A DNA stretch of 1,086 nt, taken from the NCBI RefSeq assembly GCF_003334815.1, contig NZ_QOWO01000107.1. One strand, 5' to 3'. This DNA is from Escherichia coli. GTDB lineage: Bacteria > Pseudomonadota > Gammaproteobacteria > Enterobacterales > Enterobacteriaceae. The position numbers were made by a program, and so were the translations under genes. A model generated the notes under the pieces. That model did no database searches. It had not been told where the DNA came from and was given only the letters and a program-made list of their open reading frames with translations. Positions 1-1,086 of this stretch are shown here, piece by piece (position 1 is the stretch's first letter; every line of letters starts with the position of its first letter).

Positions 1-68
1 TTCGCCAGGAACGACCGGAACGCGGCATCATGCGGCGTGGGCGTTGTGGTGTTTTTCTTCTTACTCAC
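1..68 (-). CDS. hypothetical protein, 5' end only (continues past the left window edge); N-terminus MSKKKNTTTPTPHDAAFRSFLA...
   Basis: GTG start at 68..66 preceded by GGAGG (77..73) with a 4-nt spacer; the start overlaps the TGA stop (67..65) of the upstream gene as GTGA; frame stays open to the window edge (22 codons); the initiation region and first ~19 codons are homologous to the start of the 65..580 gene. Not in the ORF track because it is truncated by the window. Confidence 0.5.
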   Translation of the reverse strand, partial: MSKKKNTTTPTPHDAAFRSFLA

Positions 69-77
69 GGTTCCTCC
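51..77. repeat. 27-bp direct repeat, copy 1 (gtttttcttcttactcacggttcctcc); on the minus strand this is the SD plus GTG start of the 1..68 gene
   Basis: 25 of 27 nt identical to 563-589; weaker homology continues into both downstream coding regions. Confidence 0.8.
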
Positions 78-580
78 ATCAAATCAGCAGCATCGCAGCA
101 ATCATCGTCCAAATCCCCACAACCAAGAGGACAGCAATTGCGATCAAAGCCGTGACAACAATAGCCACGTTCTGCGTCACGGCGTATTTCTTCTGCAATC
201 TCTTCAGCGGAAAGGTAATCAAACTCCTCACGGGCCAGTTCCAGGACCAGCAGATGTTGTTCTGTCGGCAATGTAGACACAAAATTATCAATAGCAGCAC
301 TCAAACGTCGCTGATATAGCTCATAAACAAGACCACAACGGTGCATTAGTTCTTCGGATAATAGTTCCAGTTTTGAGCGAACGCTGTCAGCATTGAAAGT
401 GACTTCATCAGATGACATCTGAAAATCTTTGTCAGTGTCAAAACAAGACTTCATTTTTATCTCCTGCCCGTCCGGGCCCTGAATGAAAGAAAACCTGTTT
501 CCCTTCTCTGTTTTTTTATGGAACAGGAGGAATCCGGTACCATGCGACATAGACGTCATGATGTTTTTCATCTTGCTCAC
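65..580 (-). CDS. hypothetical acidic protein, 171 aa from GTG at 580 (alternative internal ATG at 454 would give 129 aa); Cys-rich C-terminal tail GYCCHGFDRNCCPLGCGDLDDDCCDAADLMEEP; no family recognised
   Basis: Long open frame (part of the 65..676 track ORF); GGAGG at 589..585 then 4 nt then GTG at 580..578; this initiation region is duplicated at the next gene; CTG/GAA/CGT-rich codon usage; roughly 34 Asp+Glu against 19 Lys+Arg by my count; stop TGA at 67..65. The track start at 676 is rejected: it has no SD and overlaps the upstream gene. Confidence 0.6.
   Translation of the reverse strand: MSKMKNIMTSMSHGTGFLLFHKKTEKGNRFSFIQGPDGQEIKMKSCFDTDKDFQMSSDEVTFNADSVRSKLELLSEELMHRCGLVYELYQRRLSAAIDNFVSTLPTEQHLLVLELAREEFDYLSAEEIAEEIRRDAERGYCCHGFDRNCCPLGCGDLDDDCCDAADLMEEP
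73..77 (-). promoter_or_regulatory. Shine-Dalgarno (GGAGG) for the 1..68 gene, embedded in the last codons (M-E-E-P) of the upstream gene
   Basis: GGAGG then AACC then GTG, with the GTG overlapping the upstream TGA as GTGA. Confidence 0.55.
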
Positions 581-589
581 GGTTCCTCC
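563..589. repeat. 27-bp direct repeat, copy 2 (gtttttcatcttgctcacggttcctcc); on the minus strand this is the SD plus GTG start of the 65..580 gene
   Basis: 25 of 27 nt identical to 51-77; differences at repeat positions 8 and 13. Confidence 0.8.
585..589 (-). promoter_or_regulatory. Shine-Dalgarno (GGAGG) for the 65..580 gene
   Basis: GGAGG then AACC then GTG; sits inside the duplicated 27-bp element. Confidence 0.55.
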
Positions 590-644
590 TGGTAAAGTAC
601 CTGAACATATCCTGCCACCTGCACAGACAGACGGCAGGGGGTAA

Positions 645-911
645 TCAGTGGCAGACCCGTTCAATTTCAAGCGCACGGAGCAGGTGCCCCCACTCGCTGA
701 CTTTCATGGCGGGGATACGCACCCGCTTCCGCTCACTGCAGCGTCTGGCGATATGACCGCCCATCGCCAGGACGTCCGGGTTAATCTCATCCGGTGCCAG
801 TTCCTGGCGTCTGAAGCGGGTATGGCGGTGCAGGGGTTTGTTCTCCCGCAGGCACTCTTCACGCAGACGCTTTACATATTCAGCCGTTGCAAAGATAATT
901 GATGGTCTCAT
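645..911 (-). CDS. hypothetical small basic protein, 88 aa (MRPSIIFATAEYVKRLREECLRENKPLHRHTRFRRQ...ERVCH); Arg-rich, possibly nucleic-acid binding; identity unknown
   Basis: ATG at 911..909 preceded by GGAG (923..920) with an 8-nt spacer; stop TGA at 647..645; Leu codons are CTG-dominated on this strand (6 of 8) versus CTC-dominated on the mirror plus-strand ORF; about 15 Arg + 4 Lys against 12 Asp/Glu. The track extends this ORF to 1007 (120 aa), but the extension crosses the terminator hairpin and uses rare AGG/ATA/CGG codons. Confidence 0.5.
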   Translation of the reverse strand: MRPSIIFATAEYVKRLREECLRENKPLHRHTRFRRQELAPDEINPDVLAMGGHIARRCSERKRVRIPAMKVSEWGHLLRALEIERVCH

Positions 912-978: not shown

Positions 979-1004
979 GCAGGGTTTATCGCCCTGCTTT
1001 TTTT
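979..1004 (+). terminator. intrinsic (rho-independent) terminator hairpin, strongest on the plus strand; possibly bidirectional
   Basis: Stem GCAGGG (979-984) / CCCTGC (992-997), 7-nt loop TTTATCG, then T7 run (998-1004); an A-rich tract upstream (973-977) could extend the stem. On the minus strand the same hairpin is followed by the weaker tract CTTTCTCT. Confidence 0.6.
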
Positions 1005-1086
1005 CATTCCGGACAGCGACGCAGTGCCAGCGCGAGCGCTTTCATCTTCCAGCCTTCCGGCGTGCGGTACATCACCTTCCAGTAGC
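1004..1086 (-). CDS. 3' end of an unidentified gene entering from the right edge (C-terminus ...YWKVMYRTPEGWKMKALALALRRCPE, stop TGA at 1006..1004)
   Basis: Frame open from the window edge to the TGA, with CTG/GCG/CGT/CGC/CCG/GAA codons; stop is followed immediately by a hairpin. Not in the ORF track because the start lies outside the window. Only 27 codons are visible, so support is limited. Confidence 0.35.
   Translation of the reverse strand, partial: YWKVMYRTPEGWKMKALALALRRCPE

Follow-up and report, generated by a model that had tools for sequence, protein, structure and literature searches.

Our data indicate that the ATG at 454..452, together with its upstream AGGAG, is very probably the genuine and principal translation start of ccgAII, and that the frame upstream of it is open only through an accident of evolution in a minority allele. 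The window (i.e., the whole 1,086-nt stretch of Escherichia coli DNA analyzed here, contig NZ_QOWO01000107.1) had been read, from its sequence alone, as carrying a minus-strand gene at 65..580 with an internal start at ATG 454. ATG 454 being the true start, with the upstream 42 codons separate from the gene, was also considered in that preliminary description, and it is this option that is supported by annotation, by a comparison of 512 plasmids, by a leader that also precedes an unrelated gene, and by the size of distant homologues. A start at this position is ordinary and already known from annotation, and it indicates no new mechanism.

The start site of ccgAII

The minus strand around ATG 454 spells GGGCAGGAGATAAAAATGAAGTCT. 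The arrangement originally described (GGAG at 464..461, 6 nt and ATG at 454..452, in frame with 65..580) matches the sequence, and translation from this ATG to the TGA (Table 1) agrees with the proposed 129-aa product (N-terminus MKSCFDTDKDFQ, 14.8 kDa, pI 4.2). GTG 580 lies in frame 42 codons (126 nt) upstream of ATG 454 with no stop between them, and is preceded by AGGAGG and a 4-nt spacer. The 42 residues between the two codons are basic (pI 10.0), again as described.

By itself the SD-ATG motif is weak evidence and statistically unremarkable, with two copies of GGAG-N5-9-ATG in the window versus 0.69 expected and two or more copies in 29 of 200 shuffles. Both copies (452-464 and 909-923) fall on annotated gene starts. 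At ATG 454 the SD/anti-SD duplex has an energy of -7.4 kcal/mol, compared with -6.4 for the 88-aa gene and -9.3 for the true rpn start; the best value in the region belongs to GTG 580 (-10.3), while the in-frame ATG 418 reaches only -0.9.

Every PGAP/RefSeq and GenBank/submitter record inspected places the CDS start at the equivalent of ATG 454, and the protein read from it is a RefSeq entry of the CcgAII family (WP_001317525.1). The 171-aa form was found only in automated calls on Logan assemblies (P0001). SD, ATG 454 and the 129-codon ORF were intact in all loci examined, and the SD-ATG is kept in both plasmid alleles. Homologues lacking the internal ATG and SD had been named beforehand as grounds for giving up the internal start; every close homologue keeps both, and it is the long frame that is missing instead. 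We infer from these sequence comparisons that ATG 454 is the start mainly used by ribosomes.

Table 1. Features of the window around the ccgAII start (positions on the 1,086-nt stretch)
Feature	Position	Strand	Basis and remarks
rpn start: SD GGAGG 77..73, GTG 68..66, first 22 codons, running off the window	1..77	minus	PGAP WP_000038345.1
ccgAII CDS, 129 aa, acidic, Cys/His-rich C-terminus	65..454	minus	WP_001317525.1; TGA 67..65 overlaps rpn GTG 68..66
ccgAII translation start: AGGAG 465..461, spacer ATAAAA 460..455, ATG 454..452	452..465	minus	sequence and annotation
~65-nt 5' leader with SD and variable A-run 517..511	455..519	minus	BLAST and alignments
Decayed rpn start copy: SD AGGAGG 590..585, GTG 580..578, ~20 rpn-derived codons	520..590	minus	direct repeat
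14-nt segment ACCGGATTCCTCCT, absent from the majority allele	525..538	minus	alignment; predicted pairing with vestigial SD 590..585
88-aa hypothetical gene	645..911	minus	PGAP WP_001247861.1; stop 64 nt before GTG 580

A leader in common with an IncX1 plasmid gene

The part of the upstream 42 codons nearest to ATG 454 is a leader that also occurs elsewhere. Window positions 519..450 (65 nt and the ATG) share 82% identity with the leader sequence of a 109-aa gene (phrog_37844) that is unrelated to ccgAII and present on ~450 IncX1 plasmids (e.g., pSC4R-tetX4, locus L007, 2460-2573). The homology ends ~5 nt past the ATG, and the aligned ATG is the annotated start of the 109-aa gene. The joint created by recombination falls exactly on the start codon in front of both unrelated ORFs, which strongly argues that this ATG works as a start. 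The IncX1 leader is preceded by a good promoter (TTGCCA-17-TATAAT), whereas scanning the window for sigma-70 promoters gave none on the minus strand, so the IncX1 promoter has no counterpart there. The spacer of the IncX1 promoter holds a perfect, operator-like palindrome (TACCTGCA-AA-TGCAGGTA).

Within PLSDB the leader module occurred in just two gene contexts. Structure prediction gives it two small hairpins; its consensus fold, drawn from these two lineages, showed no compensatory changes or covariation. An Rfam scan of the window (E<=1) returned only a chance IRES match, and thus no known RNA element covers the leader.

A known module with a comparable placement is the CUP (conserved upstream repeat) element, which is conserved before different establishment genes and is a substrate for recombination between them (PMC5027574). 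CcgAII of the IncN plasmids pKM101/R46 is listed among the CUP-controlled genes, as that paper cites Delver & Belogurov 1997. In the IncN leading region (L004) we found four 126-nt CUP copies (275-400, 2861-2986, 5063-5188 and 5838-5963), one of which ends 9 nt before the ccgAII ATG. The window contains no CUP core save one chance-level match with three mismatches inside another gene, and CUP control (a promoter and an ArdK site directly upstream) was not found for its ccgAII. The 65-nt leader resembles CUP in being placed before different genes, i.e., the IncI ccgAII and the IncX1 gene, but has no sequence similarity to it, has no promoter in the window, and is accompanied by no ArdK-like regulator that we could identify. 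The IncN gene is thus directly preceded by CUP while the IncI-complex gene has the leader in common with the IncX1 gene instead, and IncI-complex ccgAII has traded its CUP control region for another leader. CUP is a regulatory feature of the IncN regulon and not of the protein, so the membership of the window protein in the CcgAII family stands.

These data raise a further reading, which we consider unlikely: the SD-ATG might belong to a portable ~65-nt leader cassette (two hairpins and AGGAG-N6-ATG) that recombination joined, exactly at the start codon, to mutually unrelated establishment genes in IncI-complex and IncX1 plasmids and that could serve as a common post-transcriptional control element, a counterpart of the IncN CUP. 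The dead rpn start and the A-run could then add allele-specific upstream translation, including the 171-aa fusion.

A decayed rpn start upstream of the leader

The remaining, distal part of the 42 codons derives from rpn. A 70-nt direct repeat (520-589 versus 8-77, 76% identity) brackets the ccgAII cassette. This duplicated initiation region had been taken as an argument that the longer protein is real; the duplication itself is confirmed, but as a dead copy of the rpn start it gives the long form no support. The upstream copy differs from rpn at 13 of 21 codons, and all but one of these differences (12/13) are non-synonymous. Intact rpn encodes MSKKKNTTTPTPHDAAFRSFL, while the remnant encodes MSKMKNIMTSMSHGTGFLLFH and then passes into unrelated leader sequence. 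The PHD motif is lost (TPHD to MSHG), such that the remnant lacks the intact PD-(D/E)XK N-terminal motif of the Rpn family (TPHD...F). The upstream segment is a pseudo-start rather than a gene, and the apparent N-terminal extension derives from it.

Plasmids without ccgAII show how this structure is built. In ~1,400 IncI-complex plasmids (estimated from 21-23 of 40 evenly spaced rows of 2,555 matches) ccgAII is absent, and the intergenic DNA after the 88-aa gene runs directly into AGGAGGAACC-GTG-rpn. Since these plasmids lead from the 88-aa gene straight to rpn, the upstream copy is a duplicated rpn initiation region flanking the ccgAII cassette, and the cassette was gained or lost by recombination at the rpn start. 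The recombination joint adjoins a gene for a recombination-promoting nuclease (rpn).

In RNA folding predictions, the vestigial AGGAG is 5% unpaired, versus 39% for the SD of ATG 454 and 35-63% for true rpn SDs. Its predicted partner is GGAUUCCUCCUG (534..523; local hairpin z = -2.8), a segment that is largely gone in the 14-nt deletion considered below. Thermodynamically, the vestigial SD is therefore predicted to be occluded by RNA structure.

The upstream frame is not conserved among ccgAII plasmids

The ccgAII region is carried by 512 PLSDB records, of which 46 are window-like and 462-466 fall in a class with a 14-nt deletion, as counted from BLAST length and identity classes and from a sample of fetched loci. 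The distance from GTG to ATG on the fetched loci is 126 (window), 124, 114, 113 or 112 nt. When 60 records were sampled in even steps, 49 had 112 nt, two had 113 nt, two were 1 nt shorter, one had an in-frame 114 nt and five were window-like. The A-run between the rpn remnant and the leader ranges from A5 to A8 among records, shifting the frame of the GTG ORF relative to ccgAII, and part of this variation (CP0612xx records) may be assembly error. Because the deletion and/or an altered A-run puts the GTG out of frame, ~90% of ccgAII plasmids cannot make the fusion. This speaks against the reading that the preliminary description preferred, a 65..580 gene in which internal initiation gives a shorter isoform. 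In one locus (L015) the identical 129-aa protein lies behind a 112-nt out-of-frame leader, and pESBL of the O104:H4 outbreak strain, which has been used for early-conjugation RNA-seq (PMC12672017), carries the out-of-frame form.

The 14 nt retained by the window-type allele align with rpn sequence, which marks this allele as ancestral and makes an early fused product conceivable. An in-frame, stop-free upstream arrangement is not surprising by chance: we estimate its probability at ~0.14, with ~23 codons open by descent from rpn, the other ~19 open with p ~0.4, and a phase factor of 1/3.

Dual initiation in the window allele, with GTG 580 giving a basic-headed 171-aa protein and ATG 454 giving the 129-aa CcgAII, is improbable on these data. 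It would fit an upstream frame that is open throughout its 42 codons in the window as well as in 44-46 near-identical plasmids, yet the long frame is lost in ~90% of ccgAII plasmids while the gene is retained, and an identical 129-aa protein occurs behind a broken frame. GTG 580 does keep the AGGAGG, 4-nt spacer and GTG of the working rpn start (at the -10.3 kcal/mol given above), but its vestigial SD is predicted to be 95% paired, and what it would translate is decayed rpn followed by a leader that is non-coding in IncX1 plasmids. Translation of a second protein from a start inside the gene is known for the rpn family itself (PMC10327210), whereas no homologue of CcgAII carries the extension. 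The long 171-aa form, if made, would most likely be a neutral by-product, and the comparative data say that such a 19.5-kDa fusion, if it exists, would be dispensable.

We regard as very improbable that the vestigial rpn start opens a short upstream ORF that regulates ccgAII by coupling or interference, with the slippage-prone A5-A8 run setting whether the outcome is a fusion, a stop 2 nt before the ATG, or an overlap. The geometry is suggestive in that the GTG ORF of the 113-nt variant has 36 codons and a TAA 2 nt before the ATG, and that of the 112-nt variant extends over 42 codons to a point 17 nt into ccgAII; that near-identical loci show three different frame relations nevertheless argues for an absence of constraint, and the SD of such an ORF is predicted to be paired in both alleles. 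The length of the A-run differs among records as this reading would have it, but some of the differences (those in the CP0612xx records) may be assembly errors and A7-A8 is short for efficient slippage.

The CcgAII family and the N-terminus of the window protein

The window protein matches NCBI/UniRef entries named 'CcgAII protein' with E = 1e-41 to 1e-45 and 73-77% identity over the core, which places it in this family. The alignment shows common motifs (GL.YELYQRR, EFDY, C.HG and CCPLGCGD), and invariant or near-invariant positions are G41, L42, E45, L46, Y47, Q48, R50, E77, F78, D79, Y80, C99, H101, G102, C107, C108, P109, G111, C112 and G113. More than 20 homologues (42-77% identity, 101-106 aa) come from IncN, IncFII-type and other plasmids. 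CcgAII has no Pfam, NCBIfam or PHROGs match and no informative fold match; residues 30-93 match PRTase_III-A of PADLOC weakly (E=6e-5). The conserved C-x-H-G-x4-C-C-P-L-G-C-G-D motif (residues 99-124; window 83-160, minus strand) suggests a small metal-binding knuckle, after which the IncI-complex tail adds DDCCDAADLMEEP.

In the passages of PMC3817090 and PMC3347995 that deal with its function, CcgAII is given as antirestriction or RecA-related; the two differ, and both cite others. The location of its gene makes CcgAII a probable establishment or anti-defence factor. Neither ccg nor Rpn is mentioned in the Nature 2024 leading-region paper.

[quoted passage not shown] Compared with this IncN protein, the IncI-complex form is longer by 18 residues at the N-terminus and carries a Cys-rich tail of 13 residues reaching into the rpn SD. 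Among the more than 20 distant homologues aligned, none has an N-terminal extension, and they begin opposite residues 13-19 of the 129-aa form. The AlphaFold2 model of the 129-aa protein (pLDDT 80) has helices from 22 to 95 and a folded core from about residue 21, with residues 1-12 disordered. Of the non-synonymous changes separating the two alleles, half lie in the initial 25 codons. Family N-termini align nearer to ATG 418, so that the first 12-18 residues of the 129-aa form are a lineage-specific addition. IncI-complex ccgAII took on a new leader together with an ATG and 18 N-terminal codons.

A real start at ATG 418..416 (Met13), giving 117 aa and an N-terminus like that of other CcgAII proteins, would fit the alignment at residues 13-19, the disorder of residues 1-12 and the clustering of allelic differences, but is scarcely credible given that ATG 418 has no upstream SD (-0.9 kcal/mol), annotation uses ATG 454, the common leader module ends precisely at ATG 454, and no indel or stop occurs between 454 and 418 in either allele.

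The N-terminal MKSCFDTDKDFQ resembles both the N-terminus of IncFII-type CcgAII (METFDTDKFRSEL; locus L018, 1501-1540) and the TFNADSVRSKL that follows it (window 400-454, minus strand). The 5' end of ccgAII may be a partial tandem duplication (FDTDKDF versus FNADSVR; cf. P0010), though the stretch is very short.

Comparison with Rpn(L)/Rpn(S) and significance

The Rpn(L)/Rpn(S) proteins, in which the shorter protein comes from an internal in-frame start, are an established case of genes within genes (PMC10327210), and they belong to the same family as the neighbor gene whose start region is duplicated here. For Rpn, the start inside the gene is conserved, and the long and short proteins constitute a toxin-antitoxin pair (PMC10327210). 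Unlike that case, the long frame of ccgAII is not conserved and its extra part is non-homologous: a two-isoform gene would have both the long frame and the internal start conserved, and here only the internal ATG and SD are.

The main value of this analysis is a correct annotation, as gene callers that favor the longest ORF report 171 aa (P0001) where the true protein is CcgAII with 129 aa. How leading regions are assembled can likewise be seen at this locus, with a cassette between duplicated neighbor starts and a leader and start codon common to unrelated genes of different plasmid groups. In evolutionary terms its mosaic structure (duplicated rpn start and IncX1-like leader) is a minor detail. 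Should either the fusion or the leader be functional, this would bear on the expression of establishment genes just after conjugation.

Plasmid context and the ccgAII-rpn junction

Many conjugative IncI-complex plasmids (IncI1/B/O/K/Z) from E. coli and Salmonella match the window at 100% identity, among them pO26-CRL125 (NC_022996.1), where the match lies in the leading (first-transferred) region. The authors of pO26-CRL125 had already named this ORF ccgAII and described the same 9.7-kb leading region (PMC3817090). In NZ_AP018803.1 the gene order is ParB, psiB, psiA, ardA, a 144-aa gene, the 88-aa gene, ccgAII, rpn, mobA (nikA-type) and relaxase, all co-directional and corresponding to the minus strand of the window; ccgAII thus sits between the ardA/psiB/psiA/ParB genes and the nikA-type mobA/relaxase genes. 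The rpn product is an Rpn-family nuclease (NCBIfam TIGR01784, 177 bits versus a cutoff of 52). The 88-aa protein gave no family match in profile searches including NCBIfam, PADLOC and PHROGs. We rejected two GenBank names for lack of Pfam or NCBIfam support, 'cobalamin biosynthesis protein CbiX' for ccgAII and 'post-segregation killing protein PndC' for the 144-aa gene (L001, 5649-6083), both of which look like propagated mis-annotations.

A terminator-like hairpin (GCAGGG-CGATAAA-CCCTGC, then CTTTCTCT; 979-997, minus strand) lies a few nucleotides past the stop of the 144-aa gene (TGA 1006..1004), which prompts one to ask from which promoter the 88-aa gene, ccgAII and rpn are expressed. Single-stranded promoters drive the transcription of IncI1 leading-region genes soon after transfer (PMC12672017, PMC3817090).

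The ccgAII cassette, comprising leader and ORF, lies between two copies of the rpn initiation region, of which the upstream copy is vestigial and no longer encodes rpn sense. Ribosomes would load at the AGGAG and ATG 454 on a ~65-nt leader module that recombination has placed before two or more unrelated plasmid genes, and the transcript probably spans upstream genes too. Translation of ccgAII would end at the TGA that overlaps the rpn GTG, probably coupling rpn translation.

This coupling is suggested by the junction itself. Stop and start codons share the sequence GTGA (rpn GTG, ccgAII TGA), and the final four codons of ccgAII (MEEP) double as the rpn SD (65-77, minus strand), so rpn translation is probably coupled to that of ccgAII. 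In a metagenomic contig, a 113-aa CcgAII with a short N-terminus and its own upstream region has the same C-terminal tail overlapping the rpn start (L022, 530-545). The same junction behind a different 5' end indicates that the ccgAII-rpn junction is older than the present 5' end of ccgAII, and that ccgAII and rpn are a linked pair in at least two contexts.
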